Of a stretch of DNA of 64,000 bases, positions 8,370-40,061 are shown piece after piece (position 1 is the first letter of the stretch; the number at the start of each line of letters is the position of its first letter). Below the pieces are notes generated by a model. That model had not been told where the DNA came from. It did not search any database and worked only from the letters and a program-made list of their open reading frames with translations. The stretch spans positions 1,472,001 through 1,536,000 of the forward strand of contig CAWGHO010000001.1 in the NCBI GenBank assembly GCA_963822445.1. The letters run 5' to 3'. Origin of the DNA: an uncultured Acidobacteriota bacterium (GTDB lineage: Bacteria; Acidobacteriota; Thermoanaerobaculia; Gp7-AA8). A program made the translations under genes and the position numbers.

Positions 8370-8403
8370 AGGGGCACCATTCTCGCAGTTTTGCGCCGCG
8401 ACC

Positions 8404-9480
8404 ATGCCCGGAACGATGGCGGACCAATCCATTCGCAAGGCGGGCGTCCGCCGCCGCTGGTACCTCGATCTCCACGGCATCCGGCGCGAAGGGTCGAAGG
8501 AAACCGGCTTCTCCTTCCGCCTGCCCACGGGCAAGGTCATCGAGGACGAGAAGATCCTGGCCCGCATCCAGAAGCTGCGCATCCCACCCGCCTGGAAGGA
8601 AGTACGCATCGCGCGGGGCGACTCCGCGCCGCTTCAGGCGGTCGGCGTCGACAAGAAAGGGCGCACGCAGTACCTCTACCATCCCCGCTTCCGCGCGCAG
8701 CGCGAGGAGGCGAAGTTCAGGCGGGTCGTCGAGTTCGGCGAGGCGCTGCCCGTCCTCCGCCGCCGCGTCCGCGCCGATCTTTCCGGCGCCGCGCTCGAAC
8801 GGCAACGCGTCCTCGCGGCCATGGTCCGCCTCATCGATCAGGGCTTCTTCCGCATCGGCAATGACAAGAGCGCCGAGGCGGAGTCGACGTTCGGGTTGTC
8901 CACGATTCGCGGATCACACGTGAAAGTGGAGGGAAACGCGGTCCTATTCGATTACGTCGGCAAGTGGAAGAAGAAGCAGAAGCGCGCCATCAGCGACGAA
9001 GACGTGGCGAAAGTCGTATCCGAGCTGAAGAAGCTCAAAGGCGCGGAGCTGTTCCAGTTCGTGCAGAACAACAAGACCATCGACGTGAAAGACCGGCACG
9101 TCAACGACTACATCCAGGCCGTGATCGGCCGGGACTTCACGGCCAAGGACTTCCGCACCTGGGCGGGCACGCTGCTCTGCTCGATCGCCCTGGCCATGCA
9201 GGGTCAGGCCGAGACCAAGACCGAGCGCAAGCGCCGCGTGCGCAAAGCCATCGTCGCGACCGCGGAGCAGCTCGGCAACACCCCCGCGGTCTGCCGCTCT
9301 TCGTACATCTGCCCCCGCCTTCTCGACGAGTACATGGAAGGCGCGCCCTTCGAGCAGCTGCGCAAAACGCGCAAAGGCAGCCCGGTGGTGCGCATCGGAC
9401 TGTCGATGGAGGAGAAGGCGCTGCTCAAGTTTCTGAGAGAGACGATTGCGGACCGGCGGATCAAACCGCGTGCGGCCTAG
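8404..9480 (+). CDS. DNA topoisomerase IB (poxvirus-like bacterial type)
   Basis: GVDKKGRTQYLYH, FFRIGN, FDYVGK, AKDFRTW and LGNTPAVCRSSY (catalytic Tyr) motifs. Start is 8404 or 8416. Confidence 0.9.
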   Translation: MPGTMADQSIRKAGVRRRWYLDLHGIRREGSKETGFSFRLPTGKVIEDEKILARIQKLRIPPAWKEVRIARGDSAPLQAVGVDKKGRTQYLYHPRFRAQREEAKFRRVVEFGEALPVLRRRVRADLSGAALERQRVLAAMVRLIDQGFFRIGNDKSAEAESTFGLSTIRGSHVKVEGNAVLFDYVGKWKKKQKRAISDEDVAKVVSELKKLKGAELFQFVQNNKTIDVKDRHVNDYIQAVIGRDFTAKDFRTWAGTLLCSIALAMQGQAETKTERKRRVRKAIVATAEQLGNTPAVCRSSYICPRLLDEYMEGAPFEQLRKTRKGSPVVRIGLSMEEKALLKFLRETIADRRIKPRAA

Positions 9481-13637: not shown

Positions 13638-13703
13638 GCGCGGGTTCCCACCTGCCGCCGGACCGCCGTCCGCGTCGTTTTTCCACCCGCACCAAACGAA
13701 GCA

Positions 13704-14780
13704 ATGAACCATTCCGACGTGCGCGACACGCTGATCGCGCTGTCTTTACTGCCATTTCTCACACCGAACAGGACCCGTCTTCTCCGCGAATACTTCGGCC
13801 ACATCGAGCTGGCCTGCGATGCCTCGTGCGATCTTCTGCAAGGGCTTTTGAGCCTAACCCGCGAGCAGGCGCAGCAGGTAAAGGTTCCGTTAACACGCGA
13901 GGCTCGTGAAGTGGTCGCGTCCGTGCGCGCGCACGTGATCACGCTCGCCGACGACACCTATCCGCCGCTTTTGCGGGAGATCATCGATCCGCCGCTCGTG
14001 CTGCACGTTCGCGGAAATGCGGCGCTGCTCGCGAACCTCTCTGTCGCCGTCGTCGGCTCGCGCCGCGCGACGCCGTACGGCCTCAACGCCGCGCATCATC
14101 TGTCGCGCGATCTCGCGTCCGCCGGCGTCACGATCGTCTCCGGTCTCGCGCGCGGAATCGACGCCGCCGCCCACCAGGCCGCACTCGACGCCGGCGCACC
14201 GACCATCGGCGTCCTCGGCACAGGAATCGACGTCGTGTATCCGCGATCGCACCGAGCTCTGTTCAAGCGCGTTGCGGAGAGCGGCGCGATCGTGAGCGAG
14301 CTCGCGCCGGGGACGCCGCCGAAGCGGGAGAACTTCCCGATCCGCAATCGGATCATCTCCGGCCTGTCGAAAGGAACGGTGATCGTGGAGGCGACCACCC
14401 GAAGCGGATCGCTGATCACGGCACGCATGGCCGCGGAACAGGGTCGTGATGTCTTCTGCGTCCCGGGCTCGATCTTCTCGGACAAGTCCGAGGGAACGCA
14501 TCGGCTGATTCAGTACGGAGCGAAGCTCGTTCACGACGTTGACGACGTGCTCGAGGAGCTCGGTCCAGACTTGCGAGCGCTGAAATCACGCGTCGAGGAA
14601 CCGGAAGGTCCGTTGGCCGAGGTGCTGGCGGTGCTGACGCGCGAGGAAGGTGCGCACGTCGATGCGTTGGCGGCGCGGCTCAGGCAGAGCTCGACCGAAG
14701 TCGCGGAGTCGCTGCTGCAGCTCGAGCTGGGCGGATGGATTCGCGCGTTGCCGGGAGCGAGGTATGTGCGCGTGAAATAG
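13704..14780 (+). CDS. dprA: DNA-processing protein DprA
   Basis: VAVVGSR, VSGLARGID, FPIRNRIISGLS and SGSLITA motifs; C-terminal winged helix. Confidence 0.95.
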   Translation: MNHSDVRDTLIALSLLPFLTPNRTRLLREYFGHIELACDASCDLLQGLLSLTREQAQQVKVPLTREAREVVASVRAHVITLADDTYPPLLREIIDPPLVLHVRGNAALLANLSVAVVGSRRATPYGLNAAHHLSRDLASAGVTIVSGLARGIDAAAHQAALDAGAPTIGVLGTGIDVVYPRSHRALFKRVAESGAIVSELAPGTPPKRENFPIRNRIISGLSKGTVIVEATTRSGSLITARMAAEQGRDVFCVPGSIFSDKSEGTHRLIQYGAKLVHDVDDVLEELGPDLRALKSRVEEPEGPLAEVLAVLTREEGAHVDALAARLRQSSTEVAESLLQLELGGWIRALPGARYVRVK

Positions 14781-14783
14781 GAG

Positions 14784-15086
14784 CTAAGCCAACCCGATGA
14801 GCTCTTTGTCCGCCTCGCGCGCGTTCTTCACCGTCACGGCGAGGATGGCGATCGGCACGCCCCAGGTCACCAGCTTGCGGAAGACTTTCGGCAGGCCGAA
14901 GCCGACCACGAGGCCGAGGACCGCGCCGCCGGCGATGAGGTGCGGGGCGTAGGTGCGGGCGATGGTCTTCGGATCGAGGTTCGTCCGAAGGTGGCGATCG
15001 AGCTCGTCAATGCGGTCGCCGACGCCGTCCCGCGCACGCACGATCTGCGTCTCGATCGATTTCTTCTGGTCGTCCATGTCTGCCAT
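14784..15086 (-). CDS. DUF3618/ElaB-like small membrane-anchored protein
   Basis: IETQIVRARDGVGDRIDEL followed by TM helices; follows the holin-like gene. Confidence 0.65.
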   Translation of the reverse strand: MADMDDQKKSIETQIVRARDGVGDRIDELDRHLRTNLDPKTIARTYAPHLIAGGAVLGLVVGFGLPKVFRKLVTWGVPIAILAVTVKNAREADKELIGLA

Positions 15087-15500
15087 TTACCTGCTCCTCA
15101 CGCGCGCGACGTCCGCTTTGAGCGAGTCGACGTCGCGTTTGATGTGGGCGATCGAGTCGTTGGGGACGAAGTTCACGTCCTGCAGCTTCTTCTTGCCCAT
15201 GATGCCCAGCACGGCCGCGGCCGCGAAGAGGACGAGGGTCACGATCAGCGCGGAAAGCCACGCCGGAACGCCGAGCGCGACGAGGCCGAGGGTGATCGTC
15301 ACGAAGAGAAAGGCCAGGCCGATCAGGGCCAGGAATCCCGCCCCGGCCAGCAGTCCGCCGCCGGTTCCGAGCTTGGCCACGGCCTCCTTGAGCTCGAGCT
15401 TCAGCAGCGCGATCTCGCTGCGGACGAGCATGGAAATGTCGGAGGTCAGGTCCTTGATGATGCTGCCGAGAGAACGCTCGGCTTCGGTGTAGTTGCTCAT
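15087..15500 (-). CDS. Holin-X/YqjE-like membrane protein (chromosomal 'phage holin family')
   Basis: ERSLGSIIKDL...LVRSEIALLKLEL followed by two TM helices; AAGGAG RBS. Confidence 0.75.
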   Translation of the reverse strand: MSNYTEAERSLGSIIKDLTSDISMLVRSEIALLKLELKEAVAKLGTGGGLLAGAGFLALIGLAFLFVTITLGLVALGVPAWLSALIVTLVLFAAAAVLGIMGKKKLQDVNFVPNDSIAHIKRDVDSLKADVARVRSR

Positions 15501-15545
15501 GACGTACTCCTTGAGCAAGAGGCTTTCCAGCTATGCTCTTGCCCA

Positions 15546-15911
15546 ATGTCGGATGTGATCGAGCTGGTGAAGGACTTTCGATTCGAGGCGGCGCACTTTC
15601 TACCCCAGGTGCCCGAAGGCCACAAGTGCCGGCGGATTCACGGCCATTCGTTTCGGGGCGAAGTGGCGGTGCGGGGACCGATCGATCCGAAGATCGGCTG
15701 GGTGATGGATTTCGCCGACCTCAAGCGGGCCATCGACCCTGTTGTCGCCGAGGTCGACCATTACCTGCTCAACGACGTCGCCGGCCTCGACAACCCCACC
15801 TCGGAACTGCTGGCGATCTGGATCTGGAAACGCCTCGCGCCGGTCGTGCCGAATCTCTTCCGGATCACGATCGAGGAGACGTGCACGTCGCGGTGTCATT
15901 ACTACGGCTGA
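15546..15911 (+). CDS. queD: 6-carboxy-5,6,7,8-tetrahydropterin synthase
   Basis: FRFEAAH, HKCRRIHGHSF, LDNPTSE and EET motifs. Confidence 0.95.
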   Translation: MSDVIELVKDFRFEAAHFLPQVPEGHKCRRIHGHSFRGEVAVRGPIDPKIGWVMDFADLKRAIDPVVAEVDHYLLNDVAGLDNPTSELLAIWIWKRLAPVVPNLFRITIEETCTSRCHYYG

Positions 15912-16531
15912 GATCTCAGCGGAACGAATCTGACCGCCTCGAGACGCCGCCGCGTGACGTGGCCGCCCTGTTTCTCGATCAGCCAGAGGTGTTGGTAGTC
16001 GGCGGGTCCGACCGGGATGATGCACCGCCCGCCCTCGGCAAGCTGCTCGATGAGCTCTTCGGGCAATAGCTCCGGCGCGGCCGCGGACAGGATGGCGTCG
16101 AACGGGCCTTCGTGGCGGAAGATCTCGACGCCGTTGCCGACGCCGAGGACGACGTTCGTGATTCCGAGTTGCTCGAGACGTTCCGCGGCGCTCGCGGCGA
16201 GCTCCGGCTCGACCTCGGCGCTGTAAACGATGCGGGCGAGCTTCGCCAGGATCGCGGTCTGGTAGCCGGAGCCGGTGCCAATCTCCAGCACCCTCTCGTC
16301 GCCGCGAAGGCGGAGCATTTCCGTCATGCAGGCGACGATGTACGGCTGGGAAATGGTCTGCCCGCGGGTGAGCGGCAGAGGCGTGTCGTCGTATGCCGAG
16401 GCGCGAAGGTTCTGGGGAACGAACACTTCCCGCGGAATCGAGGCGAGGACGTCCAGAACGCGCGGATCACTGACTCCGCGGCTGCGGATCTGTTCGCGGA
16501 TCATCCGCGCGTTGGCGTCATCGCTTTGCAT
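15902..16531 (-). CDS. pcm: Protein-L-isoaspartate O-methyltransferase
   Basis: GQTISQPYIVA, VLEIGTGSGYQTA and VRFVPL motifs. Confidence 0.95.
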   Translation of the reverse strand: MQSDDANARMIREQIRSRGVSDPRVLDVLASIPREVFVPQNLRASAYDDTPLPLTRGQTISQPYIVACMTEMLRLRGDERVLEIGTGSGYQTAILAKLARIVYSAEVEPELAASAAERLEQLGITNVVLGVGNGVEIFRHEGPFDAILSAAAPELLPEELIEQLAEGGRCIIPVGPADYQHLWLIEKQGGHVTRRRLEAVRFVPLRSQP

Positions 16532-17612
16532 GTTGCTGCTGCGCACCCGGACGCGGACGGCGGCCGGTTATCCGAAGCTTCATGACCCGGTCCTCGTTCC
16601 GCCGAAGCCGCGGGAGACTCACCAGCACCGTACCATCCTCGGGGATCCCCGTCAGCGACGCATCCCGATGCATGACGAAACTGCCGCTGAAGGCGACCTT
16701 CGTGACGCCGGGCGGCACCCACAACTTCACGGTTGGATTGGCGATCGGTATCCCGCCGCGATTGACCATGCGGATGCTGAAGAAGTCGTCCTTGCGCATC
16801 CGGTCCACGCTGAAGCCGAAGCCGTCGCTCCTGGCCTTCCGGCGCGAGGTCGGCGTGAAGGTCTTCGCGTTCTGCGGATCGCCCACCGCTCCGTCGGACA
16901 CCGGCTGCCCTGAGACCCATCGAAAGGCGGTTCGGAGCATGAGGTGCAAGGTGCCGTCGGGTTTGGGCGGCAGCTGGCGCGGATCGAAGCCAAACCAGAG
17001 ATAGCGCGCACCATCGCGCTCGATGTGCATCACCGCCGCGCGCTCGCTGTCCTTCCATCGCGCGTCGACGACCATGCGCGGCGTCTCTTTCAACAACGCC
17101 ACGGTTCCCGGCCGCGTGGGAATCACGTAGCCGGGTCGCAGCCGCGCGAGCACCGGCGATACATGCTCGGAGAGGCGCACGTTGCCCGTGACCTGGCCGA
17201 CTTCATAGAAAAGCCGGAAGCGGCCGATGGGCGTGCGCGGCGGAACGCCGACGAACGAGATCGCGCCGCCGCGGCGAACGAATTCTTCGAGGAGACTGGC
17301 CAGACGCGGAGTGATCTCATCGACGTCGCAGAAGACGACCACGCCTTCGATGGGATCGAATGTCTCCAGCGGGACCAGCGTCGCCTGCAATTCGGCGGCA
17401 TTGAGCAGCCGCACCCAGGCCGCGCCCAGCTGCGATCCGGAGCGCGCCGTGACGACGGTGACCTTCGGCAGCGGCTCCGGCTTGATGACGATCGATTGCT
17501 GTTCAATGAACGACCAGATGGCCACGGCACCCACCGCCACCACCAGAACGAGCATCGCTCCGTAAATGACGAGATGCTTGCTGGCGACGGTAGCTTCGTG
17601 ACGGCGAGCCAT
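16518..17612 (-). CDS. Membrane-anchored periplasmic accessory protein of the EPS operon (alpha/beta domain plus Ig-like C-terminus)
   Basis: N-terminal TM helix; co-oriented with the GT2 operon; no catalytic motif recognised. Confidence 0.65.
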   Translation of the reverse strand: MARRHEATVASKHLVIYGAMLVLVVAVGAVAIWSFIEQQSIVIKPEPLPKVTVVTARSGSQLGAAWVRLLNAAELQATLVPLETFDPIEGVVVFCDVDEITPRLASLLEEFVRRGGAISFVGVPPRTPIGRFRLFYEVGQVTGNVRLSEHVSPVLARLRPGYVIPTRPGTVALLKETPRMVVDARWKDSERAAVMHIERDGARYLWFGFDPRQLPPKPDGTLHLMLRTAFRWVSGQPVSDGAVGDPQNAKTFTPTSRRKARSDGFGFSVDRMRKDDFFSIRMVNRGGIPIANPTVKLWVPPGVTKVAFSGSFVMHRDASLTGIPEDGTVLVSLPRLRRNEDRVMKLRITGRRPRPGAQQQHAKR

Positions 17613-17618
17613 GTTCTT

Positions 17619-17724
17619 AGTAGGCAGTGGGCAGTGGGCAGTAGGCAGTGGACCCGGGGACGGGCGGGGGCCCCCTGCCTACCGCCTACTGCGAACGCGC
17701 CGTACGGCGCGCGTACTGCCTACT
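17619..17724. repeat. Inverted heptamer tandem-repeat hairpin (AGT[A/G]GGC)n
   Basis: AGTAGGC/AGTGGGC about 4.5 times, then GCCTAC(T) copies; inner CGCGCCGTACGGCGCG palindrome. Confidence 0.85.
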
Positions 17725-17911
17725 ATTTCTTCGGCTCGTACTGATTGAAGAACGCCTTCATCTGCCCTTCCTGGCGCAGTTCGCCTGCGGTCTTCGGGCG
17801 GCGAGCTTCACGTACCTTGTAAGCAAAGTAAGAAGCTACGGCGAGAATCAGTGTGACGACGATGGAGACGAAGATGACCGTCGCCAGAATGTTTACCCAG
17901 TCCAGTCTCAT
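17723..17911 (-). CDS. 62-aa single-TM protein, candidate synthase partner (PgaD/IcaD-like role)
   Basis: GGA upstream; hydrophobic N-terminal half and basic tail; lies directly downstream of the GT2 gene. Confidence 0.7.
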   Translation of the reverse strand: MRLDWVNILATVIFVSIVVTLILAVASYFAYKVREARRPKTAGELRQEGQMKAFFNQYEPKK

Positions 17912-17935
17912 GTGCAGGTCCTTCCGGTTCGAGAG

Positions 17936-19267
17936 TTAAATGCGGCCCTTGCGGGCGAGTTTTCCCCACGACATGTCGAGGCCGACCAGCTCCTCGAGCG
18001 TCGCGAATACTTTCGTCACGTCAATGATGAGGATGTAGAAGAAACGGTAGAACACCGCGTAAGCAGCCAGCCTGAGATCCTCTTTCTCCATGAGGATCGC
18101 GTGCACGGCGATGAGCACGTCCAGCAGCGTCAACAATAGCCACCACATCACCAGCAGCTTCTGCATGCCGAACATCAGGGCGATGTAGACGAAGAAGAGG
18201 CTGGAGAAAATGTTCATCGCCGGCCAGACCAGGCCTTCGAAAATCATGTACCAGAGGGACAGCGGCGTGGTGACGACGCCGGACGTCCGCGTGAGCAGAT
18301 GCTTCTGCTTGCGCAGGGCCTGCAGAATCCCGCGGCTCCACCGATACCGCTGCTTGATGATGTCCAGCAGTTCCTCGGGCGCTTCGGTATAAGCGACGGC
18401 CTTCGGCTCATAATTGATCTTCCAGCCGTTCGCGAGGATCTTGACGGTCATGTCGAAATCTTCGGCGTAGGTGTCGCTGTCGTAGCCGCCCGTGCCTTCA
18501 ATGGCGGTGCGGCGGAAGATGCCCATTGGACCGGGAATCACGTTCACCGAGCGGAAGAACGCCTGGGCCTTGCGAACGATGTTGAGCCCCTCGATGTATT
18601 CGAGGGCCTGCAGCTTCGTCCAGATGTTGTGGCGGTTGATGACCTTCACATTGCCGGCAACGGCGCCGACGTTCGGATCGGTGAACTGCCGGATCGCATA
18701 ACGCAGCGCGTCCGGAGTCAGACGCGAGTCCGAGTCCATGCAGATCACGATCGGCGCACGCGAGCGGCGGATGCCGTAATTCAGCGTGTCGGCCTTGCCC
18801 GAATTTTCCTTGCGGAAAACCTGGACTTTCACGCCGTAATGGTTCCCCTCGAACTCACGCATCTTCTCGTACGTGCCGTCCGTGGAACCATCGTCGACGG
18901 CGATGATCTCGTAATACGGATAACGCAGCTCGAGGAGGGACGCGAGCGACGCGTGAATGACCTCGGCCTCATTGAACGCCGGCACGATGATGCTGACGAA
19001 CGGGTAATGCTCGGGCGGCTCGTCATGCGAGAGCTCGCGCTGATGCAGGAAGCTGAACCAGATCAGCACGAAGTGACGGAGGATCAGCAACAGAAGGAAG
19101 CTGGCCAGCGTCACGACGAGGGCCGAGACCGCGATCGGGCCGAGGCGTTCCGGATAGCGGAACATGAAGATCGTCAGGACGACGACTGCGAGAATGATGA
19201 GAATCGAGATGATGGCCTGCTTGCGCGGGCTCATCGGTGTGCGCACGACAGGTTTCCTGGTTTCCAT
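17936..19267 (-). CDS. Processive GT2 polysaccharide synthase, PgaC/IcaA-like
   Basis: DDGSTD, GKADTLN, DSD, AED and QRYRW motifs; TM helices at both ends; no PilZ domain. Confidence 0.9.
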   Translation of the reverse strand: METRKPVVRTPMSPRKQAIISILIILAVVVLTIFMFRYPERLGPIAVSALVVTLASFLLLLILRHFVLIWFSFLHQRELSHDEPPEHYPFVSIIVPAFNEAEVIHASLASLLELRYPYYEIIAVDDGSTDGTYEKMREFEGNHYGVKVQVFRKENSGKADTLNYGIRRSRAPIVICMDSDSRLTPDALRYAIRQFTDPNVGAVAGNVKVINRHNIWTKLQALEYIEGLNIVRKAQAFFRSVNVIPGPMGIFRRTAIEGTGGYDSDTYAEDFDMTVKILANGWKINYEPKAVAYTEAPEELLDIIKQRYRWSRGILQALRKQKHLLTRTSGVVTTPLSLWYMIFEGLVWPAMNIFSSLFFVYIALMFGMQKLLVMWWLLLTLLDVLIAVHAILMEKEDLRLAAYAVFYRFFYILIIDVTKVFATLEELVGLDMSWGKLARKGRI

Positions 19268-19270
19268 GGC

Positions 19271-21811
19271 TTATCGCACCTCCGGCGGCACCGCGTCGGA
19301 GCTCGCCAGCACTCGATTGTCGAAGTAATAGCGGTCGGCGCTGTCGATGTCATGCGTGGCGCGCATCCGCTTCACGCGCACGCCGACGTAGAAGCTCCGC
19401 TGCCAGTAAGTCGCGAACTCCGGATCACCGATGAACGACTCGAAACGTCCGCTGCGTCCGTAGTTGTACGAGCCGATGATGTCGAAGGCATCGCTGATCG
19501 GGACCGTGACTCGCGCGGCCCACGCCCGGAGGTCGGAACTGCGGTCCCCATCCCACGACTTGCCGATCTTCAGCTCGGCGGTCCAGAAGATCCGATCGTT
19601 GATGTCCTGTCCAACCTGCAGCACGCCGGCGAGTGAGCGGTAATCATCCGGCGACCAGTAGCGGTTCGTGCGCTGCTCATACGACAGCACCCGCCCGTCG
19701 GCTTTGATCGCGACGAATGGCTCTTTGAAGAGGCGGAAGCTGAGAAGTCCGTGCGCGGACTGCCGGGAGTTATCGTCGGAAATGCGGCCATACGAGCCGT
19801 CGACCAGGAAGGACCAGAAACCGCCCGAATCCCAGTCGTAATGCGCGCGGAAGTCGTCGACCGACAGCGGATCGTTCAGCCGCACCTCATTGCGAGGCGA
19901 GAGCGTGAACATGTTCGAGACGTCGTAAATCAGGTCGTAATGGTTGTAGTCGAGCGCGGCCCGGCTCTGGATGTTCGGCAGATAAACGGCGCCAAGTCCG
20001 AAGTAAGGGCGGGTGCCGAGGCTGCCGGTTTCCCAGAACGTCGCACCGACGCGGCCGCGGAGGGTCAGGCGGTCGTTCGTACGATACGCGGCGCCGATGT
20101 GGGCGACGTTCGCGTCGGCGGCAAGATCGCGCTGTTCGAAGTGGTGGCGTCCCACACCGCCATTGACGGCGATCCGTGGATTCAGCCAGTGCTCCGCGGT
20201 GAGATCGCCGCGGCGGGTGTGGAAGTCGTTCGAATTGACTTCGTCCGTGTAGCGCGCCTCGATCTGCGATCCCGGCAGTCCGTAACGCGCGCGCTGTAAT
20301 TCGCGATGCGCATCAGTGAGTCCGGAATCGAGCGAAAGCGCGTAATTCTGTTCCTCGGCCGCGGTGTCCCGCCAGCCGAACCAGCGGTAGATCTGTCCGA
20401 GGCGGAAGTGAGCTTGCGGCGGGACGTCCTCGTATAAGTACGCGCGCGGCGAATCGGAGAGATCCGTCAACGTGCGCAGAGTGCGGATGGCCGGAACGTA
20501 TTCGCGGTCATAAGTCAGCGCCTGCGCGTATTCGAGCTTGATGTCGGGACGATTCGGATCCGCCTTGAGAACAATCTCGTACTGGCGCTGCGCTTCGTCA
20601 TAGCGACGGTCCCAGCTCAGCACGCGGGCGTAATTGCGGCGGGCCACGTTGTCATCCGGCGCGGACTTCAAATAGACCTCGTAGAGCTCGATCGCCGGAT
20701 CGTATGCGCCGAGGCCGGTGTAGGCCTTGGCCAGCTCGAGGACCTGTTCGCCGACCGCGCCGGCCGAGCTGTACATGGCCGGATCGCCGAACAACGAGCG
20801 GCGGCGTTCGTCGACGGCCACCAGCTCTTCCTTGCGGCGATCGAGAGCCTGCTGCTCCAGCTCGTCCAGCCCGGCCACCTCGGTCATGGTGTGCTCGCGA
20901 ATGAACTTGATGGCGCGGAGCGTCTCGCCGTAGCGGCCGGCGTCATAAAGCAACCGTGCACGCTGTACGCGAAGGGCGAGGTTGTACGGATCGATGCCGA
21001 TCATCTTGTCGAGGCGCTCGATCCGAAGATCGGGGGAAGTGCGAAGCTCGGCGAGCGTCTTTTCCGCGTCGCGCGATCCACTGTTCGCCGCGGTGAAATC
21101 CTCGAGCAGCCGGATGGCCCCTTCGCGATCGCCGCTCCAGGCCCGTGCGTTCGCCAGTGCGACCGCTGAATCTTCATTGTTGAGCGTGTCATGCGCCCGC
21201 TCGAGGCGCTGAACGGAAAGCTTCTCGGCGCCCATCCAGGAAAGCGTGCGGCCATATTCGAGCTCGAGCTCCGGACTCGGGCTGTCCTTCAGAAGCGCGG
21301 CATAACGCTCTTCCGCGGCGGAGTGCTGACCGGACCAGGTGAGCGCGCGTGCGTGATGCGTGCGCGACTCGACGGTCATCACGCCGTCCGGCAGCTTCGC
21401 GAACAAGTCCGCCGCTTCGCGATAGCGGCCGGCGGAGAAATAGGCGTTCGCGAGCTCGAGCCGATCGGCATCGGTCGCCCCATCCCGTTTCGCAGCGGCC
21501 TCGGCATCCTCGAGACGCTGCACGGCGATGAGGCGCATCTGCTCGGTCGCACGATCGCGTACGCCCGCCGCTTCGGTGTCGTTCGCATCGGCGTCGGCGA
21601 TCGCCCCGGCGAGCTTCTTGGCCTCGTAGTAACGGCCGACTTCAATGTAGGCGCGGGCAAGATCGAGTTGCTCGGCGCGCGTGGCCGTGCCGGCTTCTTG
21701 CGCTTTCTCCAGCCGCGAGATCGTCTTGCGCACATCCTCATCGGCCGCGGCGGCGGTGAAGGCGCACAACACCACTACGCAACAGATGAACAGCAACTTG
21801 CTGGGCTTCAT
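19271..21811 (-). CDS. TPR plus outer-membrane beta-barrel polysaccharide exporter (PgaA/BcsC-like)
   Basis: Signal peptide; repeated ARALTWSG/ARVLSWDR TPR units; aromatic beta-rich C-terminal part with a YWSP motif. Confidence 0.8.
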   Translation of the reverse strand: MKPSKLLFICCVVVLCAFTAAAADEDVRKTISRLEKAQEAGTATRAEQLDLARAYIEVGRYYEAKKLAGAIADADANDTEAAGVRDRATEQMRLIAVQRLEDAEAAAKRDGATDADRLELANAYFSAGRYREAADLFAKLPDGVMTVESRTHHARALTWSGQHSAAEERYAALLKDSPSPELELEYGRTLSWMGAEKLSVQRLERAHDTLNNEDSAVALANARAWSGDREGAIRLLEDFTAANSGSRDAEKTLAELRTSPDLRIERLDKMIGIDPYNLALRVQRARLLYDAGRYGETLRAIKFIREHTMTEVAGLDELEQQALDRRKEELVAVDERRRSLFGDPAMYSSAGAVGEQVLELAKAYTGLGAYDPAIELYEVYLKSAPDDNVARRNYARVLSWDRRYDEAQRQYEIVLKADPNRPDIKLEYAQALTYDREYVPAIRTLRTLTDLSDSPRAYLYEDVPPQAHFRLGQIYRWFGWRDTAAEEQNYALSLDSGLTDAHRELQRARYGLPGSQIEARYTDEVNSNDFHTRRGDLTAEHWLNPRIAVNGGVGRHHFEQRDLAADANVAHIGAAYRTNDRLTLRGRVGATFWETGSLGTRPYFGLGAVYLPNIQSRAALDYNHYDLIYDVSNMFTLSPRNEVRLNDPLSVDDFRAHYDWDSGGFWSFLVDGSYGRISDDNSRQSAHGLLSFRLFKEPFVAIKADGRVLSYEQRTNRYWSPDDYRSLAGVLQVGQDINDRIFWTAELKIGKSWDGDRSSDLRAWAARVTVPISDAFDIIGSYNYGRSGRFESFIGDPEFATYWQRSFYVGVRVKRMRATHDIDSADRYYFDNRVLASSDAVPPEVR

Positions 21812-21875
21812 GGGACTCTCCGCTGTTTCTTTGGAACCGGGCCGCTACCTCAACCGGTCCGAGATGGCGACTTGT

Positions 21876-21890
21876 GCAATGGCGATTCCA
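21876..21890 (-). promoter_or_regulatory. sigma54 -24/-12 promoter TGGAATCGCCATTGC
   Basis: Exact GG-N10-GC spacing with TTGC, 65 nt upstream of the exporter ATG. IHF-like TCTCAATCGGTTA (1 mismatch to WATCAANNNNTTR) at 21901-21913. Confidence 0.65.
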
Positions 21891-21932
21891 ATGTTGGGAA
21901 TAACCGATTGAGAGCTATCAGTTGAGCGGCGC

Positions 21933-22781
21933 TCATTTCTTCGTCGTGGTCGTGGCAGTGGTGTCCGTCGCGGTCGGAGGCGGGGTCGCTTCGACATCAC
22001 AACCGGTGTAATCGGTGGCAAGAACTACCGCCAGATGATCGGCAACGCGGCGCTCCGATTTGTCGCTGGGCTGATTGACGATTGCGTCGCTCACCCACAT
22101 CGCGCTCGATCCGCCGCCATCGAGATTGATGGCCGAGCAGGTACCGAGCTCTTCGGCCATGAATCGCGCCAGCTTGGCCAGCGTCATCCCGGGAATGCCT
22201 TCGCGCCGCCCATCCGCGACGACCATATAAAGCGTCGTTCCATCCTCGGAAACACCGACCGCAGTTCGGGGATGCGGCGAGCGGGTGAAGCCGTCGCTGC
22301 CTGGTAATTCCGTAGCGGACAGGGCCGTGCAATTCTTCACGAGCATCGGCCAACCGGAGACCGCCACGTCCATCCATTCCTCCGGTTCGGCAAGAACTTC
22401 CTTGGGCGGGTAGATCGCGACGCGGCCTTCGCCAATGGCAACGACGCCTTCGCGCTCTGTGTCTTTCGTTCCTTCCCACACACCGCACGGCCCGATCGTC
22501 AGGCCAACCGGCTTCATCTGTTTATCGAAATAGTCGGCATTGATCGCGACCACTGCTTTGGTTTTCTTCGCGTAATCGCTGACCTTGAGTCCGCGCTCCG
22601 ATTCACGTGTCGCCGTGACGATTACATCGGGATTCGTGAGATCGACGCGCGTTACATGCACGTCCATCGCATCGCGATTGAAGCGCTGATATTCGACGCC
22701 GGACGCCACGACGTTCCAATCAGCAAGCGCGGCTGTAGCGACGAGCCACACCAGTGCGGACAGCATTACGGCACGTTTCAT
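21933..22781 (-). CDS. Exported phosphodiester glycosidase (NAGPA family)
   Basis: Signal peptide; AINADYF, HPRTAVG, VADGR and NLDGGGSS motifs. Confidence 0.9.
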   Translation of the reverse strand: MKRAVMLSALVWLVATAALADWNVVASGVEYQRFNRDAMDVHVTRVDLTNPDVIVTATRESERGLKVSDYAKKTKAVVAINADYFDKQMKPVGLTIGPCGVWEGTKDTEREGVVAIGEGRVAIYPPKEVLAEPEEWMDVAVSGWPMLVKNCTALSATELPGSDGFTRSPHPRTAVGVSEDGTTLYMVVADGRREGIPGMTLAKLARFMAEELGTCSAINLDGGGSSAMWVSDAIVNQPSDKSERRVADHLAVVLATDYTGCDVEATPPPTATDTTATTTTKK

Positions 22782-22854
22782 AGATACCTCTCTGGAAGGG
22801 ATGAACTACCCGGGCGAGGGCCCTTTTCAAACGCCGTACCCAACTACTAATAAT

Positions 22855-22869
22855 TGGCATTCCGAATGC
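22855..22869 (+). promoter_or_regulatory. sigma54 -24/-12 promoter TGGCATTCCGAATGC
   Basis: GG-N10-GC spacing in the AT-richer intergenic region upstream of the LCP pair; contains the inverted repeat GCATTC-C-GAATGC. Confidence 0.55.
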
Positions 22870-22956
22870 AGTTGGCGGCATCACGTAGCAGTAAGCAATT
22901 TCGCAAGAAGGCCGGTGAAGCAGAACACCGGCTGAACGCTCACCAGGGGTCTACCA

Positions 22957-24000
22957 ATGAGTTTTGACGCTGATTCGTCGTACAGCCGCCTCCCGGCTGG
23001 AGTGGCCGCACGGATGCCGAAGGCCTCCTCCCGCACCAAAGCCACGGCGACCAGAGGACAGAAGGCGATCGAGCTCACGCTCTTCGCCGTTTTCGGATTC
23101 ACGATCGCCCTGGCCGGCTTCGCGCTCTACGCGACGAACCGTCCCGAGCATCAGCTCGTGCCGAATCGCGTGGCCGCCGGACTGAAAGCCGATCGGGTGA
23201 ACGTCCTCCTCATCAGCGCCTCGCTCCGGCCGAACGGGTCGGAGACCAGCGACGTCCGCACCGAGTCGCTGATGCTGCTATCCGTGCAGCCGTCGACGGG
23301 TCGAACGGCCCTGACTTCGATCCCGGTCGATCTCTGGGTGAAAGTCGGCCGCTACGGACAGCGCCCGCTGCACTCGGCTTACACCGTCGGCAACGCCAGC
23401 GGCTATCCGGGAGCGGGAACGGGCCTGACGGTCGACACGATCGAGACGATCATCGATGAGCCGATCCATGGCTACGCCCGCCTGAGCATCGGCGACGTCT
23501 CCCGCATCGTCGATCGCGTCGGCGGCGTCGAGGTCGACGTGAAGCGCGGGGTGTACGAGATTCGCGGCGACCGGCATCGCTTCCGCCGCGGCGTGCAGCG
23601 TTTCAAAGGGACCGACGCGATGCACTACGCGTACGCCGGCCGCGTCGCCGGTTTCGCCGCCGACCGCTTCGAGCGCGAGCAGCGCCAGCGCGAAGTGGCC
23701 ATCGCCACCATCACCAGGATCCTCGGCTCGAAGATGGAGAACCTGAACCGGTTCGAGTCCGCCTTCGGCAGCGTCGCGGCCACGAACCTCACCGGCGACC
23801 AGATCCGCACGCTCGCCCTCGCCGCCCGCCGGGGCGGCGACATCCGCGTCGTCAGCTGGAAGCCCTATCTCGATGTCGTCGACGTCAGCAGCGTTGCGTA
23901 TCGCGGCGAGGCCGTGAAGCCGCGCAGCGGCGACTTCGCCGCCGTCCGCCAGCTCACCGACGCGGCCTTCGAGGCCGGCGTCGTCGCCAAGATTCACTGA
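22957..24000 (+). CDS. LCP (LytR-CpsA-Psr) family protein with degenerate active site
   Basis: TM anchor; VNVLLI, RTESLML, SIPVDLWV, VDRVGGVEV and ERE.RQ motifs. Start is 22957 or 23014. Confidence 0.8.
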   Translation: MSFDADSSYSRLPAGVAARMPKASSRTKATATRGQKAIELTLFAVFGFTIALAGFALYATNRPEHQLVPNRVAAGLKADRVNVLLISASLRPNGSETSDVRTESLMLLSVQPSTGRTALTSIPVDLWVKVGRYGQRPLHSAYTVGNASGYPGAGTGLTVDTIETIIDEPIHGYARLSIGDVSRIVDRVGGVEVDVKRGVYEIRGDRHRFRRGVQRFKGTDAMHYAYAGRVAGFAADRFEREQRQREVAIATITRILGSKMENLNRFESAFGSVAATNLTGDQIRTLALAARRGGDIRVVSWKPYLDVVDVSSVAYRGEAVKPRSGDFAAVRQLTDAAFEAGVVAKIH

Positions 24001-24014
24001 TTGAGGAGCCTCGC

Positions 24015-25136
24015 ATGTCTTACACGCGCAACAATCCGCCCCTTGCTCCGCGGTACGACAAGCCCAAAGACAAGAAGAAAAAAGGCCTGGCCGAATATCT
24101 GATGTACGGCTTCGTGATCGTGCTCGTGGCCATCGTGACGATCGCCTCGTACGCCCATTTCGCCCCAGGCATGAAAGAAGTGCCGAACCGGGTCGCCGAG
24201 GGGTTCGATCAGGACCGGATCAATCTCCTCCTGATCGGCATCGGCGGCGACGCCCATCCCGGTGAAGGAAAGGACCTGGCCGACTCGATCATCCTGGTCA
24301 GCCTCAAACCCTCCACCCGCCAGGCCGCGCTCGTTTCCCTTCCCCGCGACCTCTACGTCCCGATGGACAGCGGCATCGGCATGCAGCGGCTGAACGCCGC
24401 CCACGCGCTGGGTGACCGCATGGGCTTCAAAGGAAAGGGCCCCGGCTTCCTCGTCCACACCGTCCAGAACCTCCTCGGCGAACCGGTCCACGCCTACGCC
24501 CGCATCGACTTCAAGGCCTTCGAGAAAGTGATCGACGCCATGGGCGGCATCGACGTCTACGTCTACCGCCCCTTCTACGACTACCTGTTCAAGGATGGAT
24601 TCGAGAAGGGATGGCACCACCTCGACGGCAAGCGCGCTCTGCGTTACGCGCGCTACCGGCACATCCGCGCGTCGTACGAGGGCAACAACTTCGGCCGGGA
24701 ACTGCGCCAGCAGCAGGTCGTGGACGCCATCCGCGACAAGATGAAAACCCTCGACGCGTCGCAGATCCTGCGCCTGTCCAAGCTGGCCATGAATTCGTCG
24801 GACTTCACCTCGACGAACCTCACCACGCCGCAGATGGTCGAGCTGTACACGACCTTCCGCAACACGAAGCGCGCGGACGTCCGCCACGTCTCGCTCAAGA
24901 AATTCACGAAGATCATCAAGCTCACCGAGCCTCACCTCTACGGGGAGGCCGTGGCCCCGCCGAAAAACGACTACACGAAGATTCGCGAGGTCGTGCGCAC
25001 GGTCTTCAACGGACGGGAGCCGATCGTGGCCCCGAGCGAGATCCAGCTGACCGAGGTTGGCGAGCCGCCGGCGGCCGCGAAGGACGAAAAAGTCGAAGCG
25101 AATCGTCAAGCCGTTGCGGCCGCGGTAGGACGTTGA
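24015..25136 (+). CDS. LCP family glycopolymer transferase
   Basis: GAGGAG RBS; INLLLIG, ADSIIL, SLPRDL, YARYRH and FGRELRQQ motifs. Confidence 0.9.
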   Translation: MSYTRNNPPLAPRYDKPKDKKKKGLAEYLMYGFVIVLVAIVTIASYAHFAPGMKEVPNRVAEGFDQDRINLLLIGIGGDAHPGEGKDLADSIILVSLKPSTRQAALVSLPRDLYVPMDSGIGMQRLNAAHALGDRMGFKGKGPGFLVHTVQNLLGEPVHAYARIDFKAFEKVIDAMGGIDVYVYRPFYDYLFKDGFEKGWHHLDGKRALRYARYRHIRASYEGNNFGRELRQQQVVDAIRDKMKTLDASQILRLSKLAMNSSDFTSTNLTTPQMVELYTTFRNTKRADVRHVSLKKFTKIIKLTEPHLYGEAVAPPKNDYTKIREVVRTVFNGREPIVAPSEIQLTEVGEPPAAAKDEKVEANRQAVAAAVGR

Positions 25137-25159
25137 AACGGTGATCGGCTGCGCCCGGC

Positions 25160-25174
25160 TGGCCCGGCTGTTGC
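25160..25174 (+). promoter_or_regulatory. sigma54 -24/-12 promoter TGGCCCGGCTGTTGC
   Basis: Near-consensus TGGC-N7-TTGC(T), 68 nt upstream of ATG 25242. Confidence 0.65.
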
Positions 25175-25241
25175 TTTTTACTTCCGCTCGGCACGCCAGC
25201 AACGAGCCGCAGTTGCAGCCAGAAACCTTCCGGAGAAAACC

Positions 25242-26930
25242 ATGAATGGATCAACGGACGTGCGGTCGATGAGCTCCTCGGGCTCCACCCCTCGCAGCGC
25301 CACGGGCGCGAAAACGGATAAACAGATTCCCATCACCTCCCCTGTCCCCGATTCGGCGGGAAAGCCGCGCTCCTCGCGAGGCGGCGCGGGCGACCGGATC
25401 ATCAGCGGAATCGATCTGATCGACTTCGGCGCCGGCGGACTGATGCCGAACCACGTCTACCTGGTCAAAGGCGCCGGTGGACTCGGCAAGTCGATTCTCG
25501 GGCTGCAGTTCCTTACCCGCGGCCTCGAGCATCAGGAGCCGGGGATCCTGATCACCGACCAGAAGCCTGAAAAGGTCATCACCCAGGCCACGGCCATCGG
25601 CTTCACGATCGAGGACGCCGTCCGGCGGAACCAGCTCTCGATCCTCAACCCCAGCGGCCGTTACTTCGACCTCGTCGAGAGCCCGGCCGACGTCATGGCC
25701 ATCGTCGAAGAGCTCGGCGACTACATCAAGAAAATCGGCGCGAAGCGCGTGGTCATCGATCCGATCTACACGCTCATCAACACCCAGTACTCGAGTCACT
25801 TCGCCCTGACCCTCACCCAGTCGATGATGAACGCGCTGGAAGACCTTCCGGCGACCGTGATTCTCATCGCCGGCGATGAGGACAGCGCCGAGCTGAATCC
25901 GATCATCCGGATGCTCGAGGGGAACGCGTTCGGCGTCGTGCAGCTGAAGCAGGACACTGCCACCGGCGGCCGCGTGATGAGCATCCCCAAACTGCGCTAC
26001 GCGTCGAGCGAGGATCTTTCCTCGCACTACCGCATCCTCAACGGCCGCGGCCTGATCAACTATCGCGGCGAAGGCGAGAAGGTCACCGACGTCACCAAGC
26101 CTTGGGAAGAGGCGACCGAGGCGAATCGGAATGTGCTCGTGATCGGCGCGCAGTCCGACACCATCCGCAAAGTCAAAGAAGCCCTCGGCGACAAGTACAA
26201 AGTCGACGCGGAATCCGATCTCAAGACCGCCGTCGATCGCGTCAAGCGCGAGAAGCCCGGCCTGGTCATGGTCACGCCGCAGCGCAGCGCGGGTGCGATC
26301 AGCGCCATCCTGGACATCACCCAGCATTCCTCATCGTCGGTGGCGTTCCTCTCCCCGGCCGGAAATCGCCAGGCCGATCGCGTGCTGTACCTGCGCGCCG
26401 GTGCGGACGATTACTTCAGCGAGCCGTTCACGCCGGCCGAGCTTCGCGCTCGCGTCGACGCGCTCATCCGCCGCAGCGGCCGCCGCCTCAACATCCGCGA
26501 CTCCGGCGCCAACTCCATCACCGCGGACGAGATGAGCGCGCTGATGAACGCCGGCGAGACCACCTCGCAGAGCCGCAGCGGACCGGTGCTCACCGCCAGC
26601 GAAAACGACAACGTGCAGTACGACCCCGAGTTCAACGATCGCCTGCAGCGCAACATCGACACCGTGTCGAAGCTCGACACTCCGTTCGCCGTGTACTGGA
26701 TCAAGGGCGACGGCGACGATCGCGAGCTGAACACCTCCCTGGCGAAACTCTGCCGGCAGGAAGACATCCTCTGCCACAACCGCAACGGCGAGTTCGTGGC
26801 CATCCTCACCGGCACGGATGCAAACGGCATCAAAGGCTTCGAGAACCGCCTCGAGGAGAAGCTCGGCGACCGCATCGCCCGTAGCAAGCGCGGACACCAG
26901 CTTTATCAGCCCGGTGAGACCAGCGCCTAA
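25242..26930 (+). CDS. KaiC/RecA-like ATPase plus pseudo-receiver plus degenerate GGDEF (BcsE-like architecture)
   Basis: Walker A GAGGLGKS and Walker B RVVIDP; REC-like region lacking the Asp and Lys; RQED-x5-RNGEF. Confidence 0.8.
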   Translation: MNGSTDVRSMSSSGSTPRSATGAKTDKQIPITSPVPDSAGKPRSSRGGAGDRIISGIDLIDFGAGGLMPNHVYLVKGAGGLGKSILGLQFLTRGLEHQEPGILITDQKPEKVITQATAIGFTIEDAVRRNQLSILNPSGRYFDLVESPADVMAIVEELGDYIKKIGAKRVVIDPIYTLINTQYSSHFALTLTQSMMNALEDLPATVILIAGDEDSAELNPIIRMLEGNAFGVVQLKQDTATGGRVMSIPKLRYASSEDLSSHYRILNGRGLINYRGEGEKVTDVTKPWEEATEANRNVLVIGAQSDTIRKVKEALGDKYKVDAESDLKTAVDRVKREKPGLVMVTPQRSAGAISAILDITQHSSSSVAFLSPAGNRQADRVLYLRAGADDYFSEPFTPAELRARVDALIRRSGRRLNIRDSGANSITADEMSALMNAGETTSQSRSGPVLTASENDNVQYDPEFNDRLQRNIDTVSKLDTPFAVYWIKGDGDDRELNTSLAKLCRQEDILCHNRNGEFVAILTGTDANGIKGFENRLEEKLGDRIARSKRGHQLYQPGETSA

Positions 26931-26950: not shown

Positions 26951-26985
26951 GAAACGCCGGCCTGGGGCCGGCGTTTTCGTTTTCT
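26951..26985 (+). terminator. Rho-independent terminator
   Basis: AAACGCCGGCC stem, short loop, GGCCGGCGTTT, then a T-rich tract. Confidence 0.8.
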
Positions 26986-33499: not shown

Positions 33500-33982
33500 T
33501 CAGCTGATCTTGCGCTGCTCGAGATCGTGTCTCGCCGCCGTGGTGTTCTGGTCTTTGTAGTGGTACTGCACGATCCCGTAATCGAGCGAGATGTTCTCGA
33601 CCGGCACGTCGCCGGGGCCGCCGGAGACGGAGTAGTTCGAAATGATGACGTGCTCCATCACCACCTCCAGATATTGGACCGGCCGGTTGCCGGAAGTGCC
33701 GTCCGAACGGAAGCAGGTCAGCGTCGCTTTACCGAACTGCTTTCCGCTCCAGCACGCCTTGAGCAGCTCGTTCGTGGTCCGGTCGAGGTACTTGGTGAAG
33801 CTGAGGTTCGCGTGGGATGCCTGCTCGACCGTCCCGCCGGCCGCGGAGCCGCGCGTCGGGCTGGTGGGCTGCGCGAATCCGTGGCTCCACGAGAGGACCT
33901 CGATCTCGCCCTGATGACCGGCAGCAGTGCTCGCCCCCGAGACCTCGGGATTCTCGAACCTGAGGTACATGTTCGTCGACAT
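33500..33982 (-). CDS. hcp: Type VI secretion tube protein Hcp (orphan)
   Basis: GHQGEIEVLSWSHG, LSFTKYLD, CWSGK and PVENISLDYG; 160 aa from ATG 33982. Confidence 0.9.
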   Translation of the reverse strand: MSTNMYLRFENPEVSGASTAAGHQGEIEVLSWSHGFAQPTSPTRGSAAGGTVEQASHANLSFTKYLDRTTNELLKACWSGKQFGKATLTCFRSDGTSGNRPVQYLEVVMEHVIISNYSVSGGPGDVPVENISLDYGIVQYHYKDQNTTAARHDLEQRKIS

Positions 33983-33990
33983 GCGCCGGA

Positions 33991-39010: not shown

Positions 39011-39037
39011 CGGAAAGGCAGGATATACCGGGGAGAA

Positions 39038-39828: not shown

Positions 39829-39856
39829 TAGCAGGATTTCCTCGGCGACTGGACGA

Positions 39857-40027: not shown

Positions 40028-40061
40028 GGTGAGCCCCCTCTGTTGTCGGGACCACCCTTTC

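Follow-up and report, generated by a model that had tools for sequence, protein, structure and literature searches.

A 64,000-nucleotide stretch of DNA from an uncultured Acidobacteriota bacterium of the Thermoanaerobaculia (contig CAWGHO010000001.1, forward-strand positions 1,472,001 to 1,536,000; the whole stretch is referred to here as the window) contains a synthase-dependent exopolysaccharide locus, in which a PgaC-like processive synthase is mixed with BcsC-like and BcsE-like parts and with two unnamed partner families. Five of its genes form a core that is linked across phyla. These code for the synthase (GT2), a 62-residue peptide with a single transmembrane (TM) segment (TM62), an exporter, a 364-residue periplasmic protein (U364), and a BcsE-like regulator. 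We propose that the locus makes and exports a homopolymer based on N-acetylglucosamine (GlcNAc), similar either to poly-N-acetylglucosamine (PNAG) or to chitin, under the control of the BcsE-related sensor, and we regard this as probable. Three further genes flank the synthase operon, two coding for LytR-CpsA-Psr (LCP) proteins (LCP1 and LCP2) and one for a phosphodiester glycosidase of the NAGPA family.

A five-gene core in at least six phyla

A profile of the GT2 family (A1) was scanned against species-representative genomes and 80 loci were retrieved (L001-L080), to which the window proteins were compared by tblastn (with a threshold of E<=1e-3 for TM62) and whose domains were identified with Pfam. 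L001, L003 and L004, all from Thermoanaerobaculia, carry genes for the regulator, LCP, NAGPA, exporter, GT2, TM62 and U364, and L002, from the same group, has the same gene order up to GT2, where its contig ends before TM62.

The next ten loci (L005-L014) have GT2 proteins 45-57% identical to that of the window and represent lineages that include Myxococcota, Gemmatimonadota, Rhodothermota, Bacteroidota, KSB1, a Pontibacterium and a Burkholderiales (seven named lineages). A recurring operon is recognizable in these with Pfam, coding for a KaiC-like ATPase (often with a REC domain), a large TPR protein, GT2, a small TM protein, and a protein of 570-770 residues. The large TPR protein is encoded directly upstream of GT2 in nine of the ten, and in seven there is a KaiC-domain gene 2.7-5.1 kb upstream of GT2 on the same strand. 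At the regulator's place the Burkholderiales locus (L014) has a Pfam-recognised BcsE (5.2e-45) and L012 has a gene without a Pfam match, and L007 is cut off there by the end of its contig. TM62 follows GT2 in seven of the ten by tblastn, and L014 has a 59-residue open reading frame (ORF) at the same position; together with the three Thermoanaerobaculia loci, TM62 is directly after GT2 in 10 of the 14 nearest loci. The core thus recurs beside the nearest GT2 relatives in Myxococcota, Gemmatimonadota, Rhodothermota, Bacteroidota, KSB1 and Pseudomonadota, at least six phyla represented mostly by uncultured bacteria.

A GT2 phylogeny had been put forward as a check in an earlier reading of the window made from its letters without database searches (the sequence-only reading), and a FastTree tree groups the window with L001-L014 in a clade of 15 (support 99) with Escherichia coli PgaC outside; this is a quick method, the outgroup branches are long, and L050, L060 and L065, whose rows are short, were excluded. 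The remaining 66 loci (L015-L080) belong to the next GT2 clade, in which all six proteins scanned are GH18-CE4-GT2 fusions of about 1130 residues. These are found in Bacteroidota, other Acidobacteriota and Gemmatimonadota (for example L025:7835-11215 and L080:7799-11197), and because they are fusions without the partner genes we do not regard L015-L080 as the same system.

The synthase, its small partner, the exporter and U364

The sequence-only reading placed the locus on the Pga/Bcs plan, and the synthase, its small partner and the TPR-barrel exporter all support this. The synthase has the GT2 motifs DDG, DSD, ED and QRYRW (within the sequence KQRYRWSRG), and its best NCBIfam model is TIGR03937 (PgaC_IcaA) with 219 bits against a cut-off of 422.3, followed by NodC (114.6) and CelA (78.5). 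Over 255 residues it shares 32% identity with E. coli PgaC. With a score below the TIGR03937 cut-off and PgaC outside its clade, it is not a plain PgaC orthologue.

The TM62 family alignment (A6) has three invariant residues, T20, Y28 and R34. Comparison of the family profile by hhalign revealed no similarity to BcsF and a value of 0.8% with PgaD, and matches of TM62 to Pfam are at chance level only. From its alignment TM62 appears to be a conserved family of its own, which we propose to be a partner of the synthase.

The exporter was expected to be a porin of the Pga/Bcs type. Export through a TPR-barrel protein holds, with the qualification that the barrel is of the BcsC type and not the PgaA type. 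The exporter family profile (A5) matches E. coli BcsC at 98.5% (hhalign, E 2.3e-15), with window residues 647-766 aligned to BcsC 940-1069, and an exporter fragment from L007 matches BCSC_C at 8.9e-5. With PgaA the TPR stretch alone matches by hhalign (86.7%) and BLASTP finds no similarity; the hhalign comparison with NfrA gives no match (17.9%).

U364 has no match in Pfam or NCBIfam. Its AlphaFold2 model (mean pLDDT 84.8) has a TM helix at residues 11-39, an alpha/beta domain resembling class I glutamine amidotransferases, and a beta-sandwich, with no catalytic barrel, and its Foldseek matches (E 1e-8 to 7e-10) are to chain G of 6ezn, the yeast OST complex, and to domains of GH42 enzymes that are not catalytic. 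Orthologues that are 51-62% identical are present in L001, L003 and L004. In the other phyla the U364 profile matches the N-terminal part of the 570-770-residue proteins encoded after GT2 (hhalign, 94.5%, E 7.7e-8), and those of L009, L012 and L014 contain a CE4 deacetylase domain identified by Pfam, so that the window version is a truncated form without the enzyme. In agreement with the sequence-only reading that a PgaB-type deacetylase is missing, no CE4 or GH domain is present in any of the eight proteins, and no deacetylase was found in the window.

A BcsE-like regulator

Excerpts of PMC7439463 and PMC8892547 describe BcsE as a RecA/KaiC-like N-terminal domain followed by REC* and GGDEF* domains (asterisks marking degenerate domains) with an RxxD I-site, and name the 63-residue BcsF as the protein that brings it to the membrane. 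The role of the RxxD I-site in sensing cyclic di-GMP (c-di-GMP) is covered in the PMC7439463 excerpts, and those of PMC8892547 describe the BcsE N-terminal domain as catalytically incompetent. The sequence-only reading of the regulator as a BcsE-like ATPase-REC*-GGDEF* protein is supported by the match of its family profile to the L014 BcsE (hhalign, 94.1%, E 1.2e-7; 417 collinear columns, residues 67-538 against 76-513). This match was found by profile comparison alone, and BLASTP of the regulator against the L014 BcsE found nothing.

The AlphaFold2 model of the regulator has three domains (pLDDT 75). The N-terminal ATPase domain is not degenerate, with an intact Walker A sequence (GAGGLGKS) and a match to KaiC in the PDB at 2e-20. 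The NCBIfam PleD model aligns in register through the REC and GGDEF regions. Weak Pfam matches of the C-terminal fragment are all to the GGDEF clan (GGDEF_2 0.0022, GGDEF 0.062, PelD_GGDEF 0.22), and matches to this clan were obtained for three of the five C-terminal fragments tried, those of the window, L009 (PelD_GGDEF, 0.032) and L011, with none for L005 and L012. Near-invariant in 28 Thermoanaerobaculia orthologues is the sequence RQED, followed after five residues by RNGEF, the distance at which an I-site precedes a GGDEF motif. RxxD is kept in four of the six distant homologues that reach this region (L005, L009, L011 and L012; L013 ends earlier), and the Asp is present in at least 90% of 35 rows. 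The REC domain is without the acceptor Asp, the position being Thr or Ser in the 28 orthologues and Asn in L005, with L008 unclear.

The regulator family is large, with 386 library representatives at E<=1e-30. We scanned 56 relatives among the best 150 representatives (46 full-length and 10 two-stretch matches), of which 55 have a KaiC domain, 28 a REC domain, and five a GGDEF-clan match (four GGDEF and one GGDEF_2); the GGDEF match of P0380 has 26.6 bits against a cut-off of 23.8. A stored regulator orthologue scores 0.80 in a Protein Atlas search, which is a lead only. The Walker A lysine is replaced by arginine (GRG) in L009-L011, which are members of the Rhodothermota and Bacteroidota, and in L005 the glycine before this lysine is a leucine; the window clade, L008 and L013 keep GK[ST]. 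The ATPase site seems to be degenerating in some branches of the family, as it has in BcsE. Judged by architecture and remote homology, the regulator is best described as a remote full-length relative of BcsE and not as a member of PF10995.

Elsewhere in the window there are genes for a PilZ protein (53113-54240, - strand) and a REC-REC-HD_5 protein (60219-62303, + strand), which indicate that the genome uses c-di-GMP. In the Myxococcota locus L006 a hybrid histidine kinase-REC-GGDEF diguanylate cyclase (13677-17300, + strand; GGDEF 1.9e-37) is encoded after the operon on the same strand, and could be a local source of c-di-GMP for the system.

Sigma-54-type promoters

The exporter gene, LCP1 and the regulator gene are each preceded by a GG-N10-GC element, and these three -24/-12 motifs, as well as the terminator after the regulator, are located where the sequence-only reading had put them. 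The exporter-operon motif is found in all five orthologous spacers (the window and L001-L004), with invariant TGGAAT and TTGCA blocks in an alignment that is 44% identical. The regulator motif is likewise present at all five loci, with invariant TGGC.C and TTGCT blocks and 45% identity. These elements are the sole invariant blocks in the two sets of spacers. The motif of the LCP unit is the same in L001, L002 and L004, and L003 has the variant CGGAAT..TTGCA. No -24/-12 motif was found upstream of NAGPA (in none of the five loci) or of U364.

A relaxed form of the motif (two mismatches) is not enriched across the window, with 13 occurrences found and 19.2 expected, and the case for these promoters thus relies on position and conservation. 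Six strict matches are present in the window, three of them away from the locus at promoter-like positions of unrelated genes; such promoters look common in this genome. A fourth, TGGAAA..CTTGCT (15514-15529, - strand), is at the start of a holin-X-like gene (PF07332) just left of the locus. A similar element precedes the holin-X-like gene in L001 and L004, with none found in L003, and the annotated start of this gene may be too far upstream. When 15 upstream regions were searched by k-mers for an activator site shared by the three promoters, only G+C-rich words emerged, each in at most six of the 15. Each of the three units is predicted to be sigma-54 dependent, from which a common regulon does not follow. 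A candidate activator of these promoters is a sigma-54 enhancer-binding protein (window 40024-41418; PF00158, Sigma54_activat, 3.4e-68). Its gene adjoins a partner-switching set coding for an HATPase_c_2 kinase, a STAS protein and a GAF-SpoIIE phosphatase (window 37391-41418, - strand).

The LCP and NAGPA genes

The LCP and NAGPA proteins are, from their sequences, bona fide members of their families. LCP1 and LCP2 score 75.5 and 122.2 bits with PF03816 (cut-off 24.6) and 65.2 and 113.6 bits with TIGR00350 (cut-off 62.3). The active site of LCP proteins has conserved Arg and Asp motifs. LCP2 matches TagV in the PDB at 3e-24 and keeps SLPRD, YARYR and GRELRQ, with LADS where TagV has RSDS. LCP1 has SIPVD where TagU has SIPRD, and YAYAGR where TagV has YARMR and LCP2 YARYR. 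It is LCP2 that is conserved in all five loci, with orthologues 46-51% identical in L001-L004, and a second LCP gene is present in the window and L004 only. NAGPA scores 126.3 bits with PF09992 (cut-off 25) and matches 3ohg at 1e-13 and vertebrate NAGPA at about 1e-6, with HPRT, DGRR and NLDGGGS aligned; NLDGGGS is also aligned with 6ozd. The DGGGS motif is given as invariant in excerpts of PMC13474241, from which its role as a sugar-phosphate motif is also taken.

The sequence-only reading regarded the locus as a hybrid whose polymer is possibly anchored by LCP and released by NAGPA, to be refuted if these genes and the ATPase gene were unlinked to the GT2 operon in related genomes. The exopolysaccharide core stands, and for the ATPase gene this refutation fails, since its linkage to GT2 extends across phyla. 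Membership of LCP and NAGPA is not established: both adjoin GT2 in 4 of the 80 loci, all from Thermoanaerobaculia, with no such case among the remaining 76. In the Thermoanaerobaculia loci synteny also covers more than 7 kb of the left flank (PCMT, holin-X-like, DprA and Omp85-like genes), so that descent alone can explain the conservation of LCP and NAGPA. Immediately beyond the regulator gene the right flank is no longer constant, with TldD only in the window and L001, GH18 in L002, REC-PP2C in L003, and genes without assignment in L004. The L002 gene (254-1597, - strand; GH18, 3.7e-26) and the L003 gene for a REC-SpoIIE phosphatase (2550-3734, - strand) may be additions to the system that are specific to their lineages.

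The donors of known LCP enzymes are linked to polyprenyl diphosphate, and we know of no processive synthase that makes such donors. No gene of a pathway to polyprenyl-diphosphate-linked donors was found among the eight genes or in the scanned flanks. Taken together, it is doubtful that LCP and NAGPA belong to the system.

Proposed mechanism and alternative explanations

In the mechanism that we propose, the inner-membrane GT2 would polymerise UDP-GlcNAc and thread the chain through its own channel together with TM62. U364, anchored in the membrane and without a catalytic domain, would receive or guide the chain in the periplasm; in other phyla the corresponding module is fused to, or followed by, a CE4 deacetylase, a domain missing here. 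The TPR protein with its BcsC-type barrel would then export the chain. The cytoplasmic KaiC-ATPase-REC*-GGDEF* protein would sense c-di-GMP at the RxxD I-site and switch the synthase on, and the synthase operon, the regulator gene and the LCP unit would be transcribed from sigma-54 promoters. We infer GlcNAc, in either beta-1,6 or beta-1,4 linkage, as the sugar and c-di-GMP as the ligand of the regulator, and the contacts between the proteins, as well as any role of LCP and NAGPA, are likewise putative. Clues to the sugar are that PgaC_IcaA is the best model for GT2, that CE4 domains are present in the partner proteins of L009, L012 and L014, that there are GH18 genes in L014 and directly after the regulator in L002, and that the next GT2 clade fuses both GH18 and CE4 to GT2.

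Several observations weigh against this proposal. With 219 bits GT2 falls well short of the 422.3 required of a PgaC equivalog, and the polymer could thus be a different one. The Pfam GGDEF matches of the C-terminal fragments are below their cut-offs, and RxxD is not kept in L010, where the Arg is missing, and is unclear in L008. PF10995 (BcsE) does not match the window regulator at E<=0.01, nor any of the 56 scanned relatives, and BLASTP and hhalign comparisons of the regulator with E. coli BcsE found nothing. Foldseek, run with the regulator model as a whole, gave only KaiC chains at the top of its list. Finally, the close loci number four, all within Thermoanaerobaculia.

One alternative concerns the regulator, which instead of a c-di-GMP receptor could be an ATP-driven GvpD-like or KaiC-like switch acting on assembly or gene expression, the RxxD being structural. 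The intact Walker A of the window clade, L008 and L013 is consistent with this, as are the JGI names of the orthologues (only KaiC/GvpD/RAD55 ATPase plus response regulator), the sub-threshold GGDEF matches, and the lack of the RxxD Arg in L010; the Walker A substitutions in L009-L011 show in addition that even ATP use varies within the family. Against such a switch stand the collinear profile match to a BcsE-family protein, the alignment of the PleD model in register through REC and GGDEF, and the position of RxxD, which precedes the GGDEF-equivalent motif by exactly five residues, as I-sites do; the role of the I-site is described in excerpts of PMC7439463. We consider an ATP switch of this kind quite unlikely, and c-di-GMP sensing by a BcsE relative remains our preferred reading of the regulator.

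The flanking genes are open to two explanations. LCP and NAGPA could be ordinary envelope genes for another lipid-linked wall glycopolymer and mere neighbours of an exopolysaccharide system consisting of the five-gene core. Or the product of the synthase could be joined by LCP to peptidoglycan, or to some other acceptor, via a sugar-1-phosphate diester, with NAGPA cleaving the GlcNAc-1-phosphate link and thereby releasing or trimming the polymer; LCP anchoring would then take the place of the retention by charge that other lineages obtain from deacetylation. The absence of both genes from 76 of the 80 loci, including all ten cross-phylum core relatives, argues for neighbours, and so does the extended left-flank synteny, through which their conservation may be inherited. 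NAGPA has its own, different promoter region, lacking a -24/-12 motif, three of the six strict -24/-12 matches adjoin unrelated genes, and no activator motif shared by the three units was found. The polyprenyl-diphosphate linkage of known LCP donors also tells against anchoring, with no gene for a carrier step among the eight. On the other side, LCP and NAGPA flank the synthase operon in all five Thermoanaerobaculia loci even though other proteins have diverged to about 50% identity. The core regulator, which is GT2-linked in other phyla, sits directly downstream of the LCP genes on the same strand and in all five loci is part of the transcription block on the LCP side, the boundary of this block falls right after the regulator gene where the right flank changes, and there are no other glycopolymer synthesis genes in the neighbourhood. 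A conserved sigma-54 promoter precedes the LCP unit, as it does the synthase operon and the regulator gene, the lineage is without the CE4 domain found in L009, L012 and L014, and NAGPA keeps the DGGGS sugar-phosphate motif (excerpts of PMC13474241). We judge that LCP and NAGPA could well be ordinary envelope genes, although we stop short of calling this probable, and that anchoring is unlikely. Still less likely is a fuller scheme, in which diderm Thermoanaerobaculia tether a synthase-made GlcNAc polymer covalently to the wall by an LCP-formed sugar-1-phosphate diester that NAGPA cuts, in place of deacetylase-based retention, and in which an ATP-competent, c-di-GMP-sensing and ancestor-like BcsE drives the system.

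Comparison with known systems

The sequence-only reading did not know this combination from described systems, and we found no description of it in the papers searched; nor did the searches bearing on it find LCP linked to a synthase-dependent operon. Like E. coli PgaABCD, the window locus has a synthase whose best model is of the PgaC/IcaA type, a small membrane protein encoded right after it, an outer-membrane exporter with TPRs and a beta-barrel, and an expectation of c-di-GMP control. It differs from Pga in the low synthase score noted above, in the absence of PgaB (CE4/hydrolase), in a barrel that matches BcsC and not PgaA, and in TM62, which has one TM segment and no similarity to PgaD. 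The presumed c-di-GMP sensor is a separate BcsE-like protein. Excerpts of PMC7112194 mention pga-like operons without pgaB and pgaD in environmental bacteria.

With the type II Bcs (E. coli-like cellulose) system the locus shares the BcsC-type barrel, a one-TM peptide of about 60 residues, the size of BcsF, and the three-part BcsE plan of RecA/KaiC-like, REC* and GGDEF* domains with RxxD that is set out in excerpts of PMC7439463 and PMC8892547. In contrast to type II Bcs, its synthase lacks PilZ, there is no BcsB, BcsG, BcsQ or BcsR in the locus, the regulator is not matched by PF10995, and TM62 lacks similarity to BcsF. The Walker A motif is intact here, whereas the BcsE N-terminal domain is catalytically incompetent according to excerpts of PMC8892547, and the product is probably a GlcNAc polymer and not a glucan.

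The E. coli NfrB-NfrA-YbcH system, going by the product names of its records, also has a GT2, a TPR-rich outer-membrane protein and a periplasmic auxiliary, and is c-di-GMP activated. The exporter family does not match NfrA, and NfrB is outside the window GT2 clade on a very long branch that makes its placement unsure. NfrB carries its own c-di-GMP domain, whereas the sensor in the window locus is a separate protein. PelD is a membrane protein with a GAF domain. Its degenerate GGDEF domain senses c-di-GMP through an I-site for a synthase-dependent polymer (excerpts of PMC7439463), and there are weak PelD_GGDEF matches here; the Pel glycosyltransferase does not belong to this type of GT2, however, and no other Pel part is present in the locus.

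LCP proteins with domain scores above the cut-offs are shared with the monoderm ligases (TagT/U/V and Cps2A), and LCP2 keeps PRD, YARxR and GRxxRQ. In contrast to the monoderm setting, the window host has outer-membrane machinery (an Omp85-family protein, TonB and the BcsC-type barrel), the locus has no lipid-linked polymer pathway, and LCP1 is degenerate.

Organization of the locus and neighbouring genes

All eight ORFs appear in the ORF listing of the window where the sequence-only reading had them (Table 1). The five leftward genes (NAGPA, TPR/barrel, GT2, the 62-residue peptide and the periplasmic protein) are confirmed by ORFs, domain matches and models, and the rightward genes for LCP*, LCP and ATPase-REC*-GGDEF* are present as described there (ORFs, Pfam and NCBIfam). 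Six of the eight have a GC3 of 0.80-0.87 and pass a crude GC3 filter; NAGPA and the 62-residue ORF fail it and have orthologues, NAGPA being 56-61% identical in L001-L004 and TM62 88-92% identical in L001, L003 and L004.

Table 1. Genes and predicted regulatory elements of the exopolysaccharide locus and its flanks (window coordinates)
Feature	Coordinates	Strand	Evidence and description
U364, 364-residue N-terminally anchored periplasmic protein	16518-17612	-	No Pfam/NCBIfam match
TM62, 62-residue single-TM inner-membrane peptide	17723-17911	-	Proposed synthase partner subunit
GT2 processive synthase, 443 residues	17936-19267	-	PF00535 3.9e-33; PgaC-like, without PilZ domain
Exporter, 846-residue TPR protein	19271-21811	-	TPR_19 4.3e-19, TPR_14 1.7e-14; signal peptide, TPR region, BcsC-type beta-barrel
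-24/-12 motif of exporter-synthase operon	21875-21890	-	TGGAAT-N5-ATTGCA; sigma-54 type
NAGPA	21933-22781	-	PF09992 1.9e-36; secreted NAGPA/DUF2233-family phosphodiester glycosidase
-24/-12 motif of LCP unit	22855-22870	+	TGGCAT-N5-AATGCA; sigma-54 type
LCP1	22957-24000	+	PF03816 6.6e-21; degenerate LytR-CpsA-Psr paralogue
LCP2	24015-25136	+	PF03816 2.7e-35; LytR-CpsA-Psr glycopolymer phosphotransferase (family assignment)
-24/-12 motif of regulator gene	25160-25175	+	TGGCCC-N5-GTTGCT; sigma-54 type
BcsE-like regulator, 562 residues	25242-26930	+	Pfam KaiC ATPase 4.1e-30; REC sub-threshold (23.4 bits, cut-off 30.2)
Intrinsic-terminator-like hairpin ending regulator unit	26951-26977	+	12-pair stem, 8 G-C pairs, then T-rich tail

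A protein-L-isoaspartate O-methyltransferase gene (PCMT; 15902-16546, - strand; PF01135 3.8e-57) shares 29 bases with the end of U364 and may be co-transcribed with the synthase operon. It also follows U364 in L001 and L003, and not in L004.

Several other features of the window are noted here. Four consecutive large ORFs (433, 589, 635 and 677 residues; 1782-8609, - strand) have high GC3 and no Pfam match at 1e-5. A lone Hcp (type VI secretion) gene (33500-34147, - strand) is located between genes for a Rieske protein and a radical SAM protein. Isoleucyl-tRNA synthetase is encoded by two overlapping ORFs in different frames (45908-47410 and 47181-48668, + strand), between which the N- and C-terminal halves of tRNA-synt_1 are split, reflecting either a frameshift or a sequence error.

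Implications

Synthase-dependent exopolysaccharide systems (cellulose, PNAG, alginate, Pel and Nfr) are few and are treated as separate kits, and the locus described here mixes parts of these. The large regulator family, with both intact and degenerate Walker A motifs, makes the descent of the inactive N-terminal domain of BcsE from a working ATPase testable. If LCP and NAGPA do take part, a processive synthase would be joined to phosphodiester anchoring, and this in a bacterium with an outer membrane; we know of no earlier link between the two. Because GT2 relatives at 83-99% identity make up the 120 matches listed in a metagenome protein search, the polymer may matter for soil aggregation.

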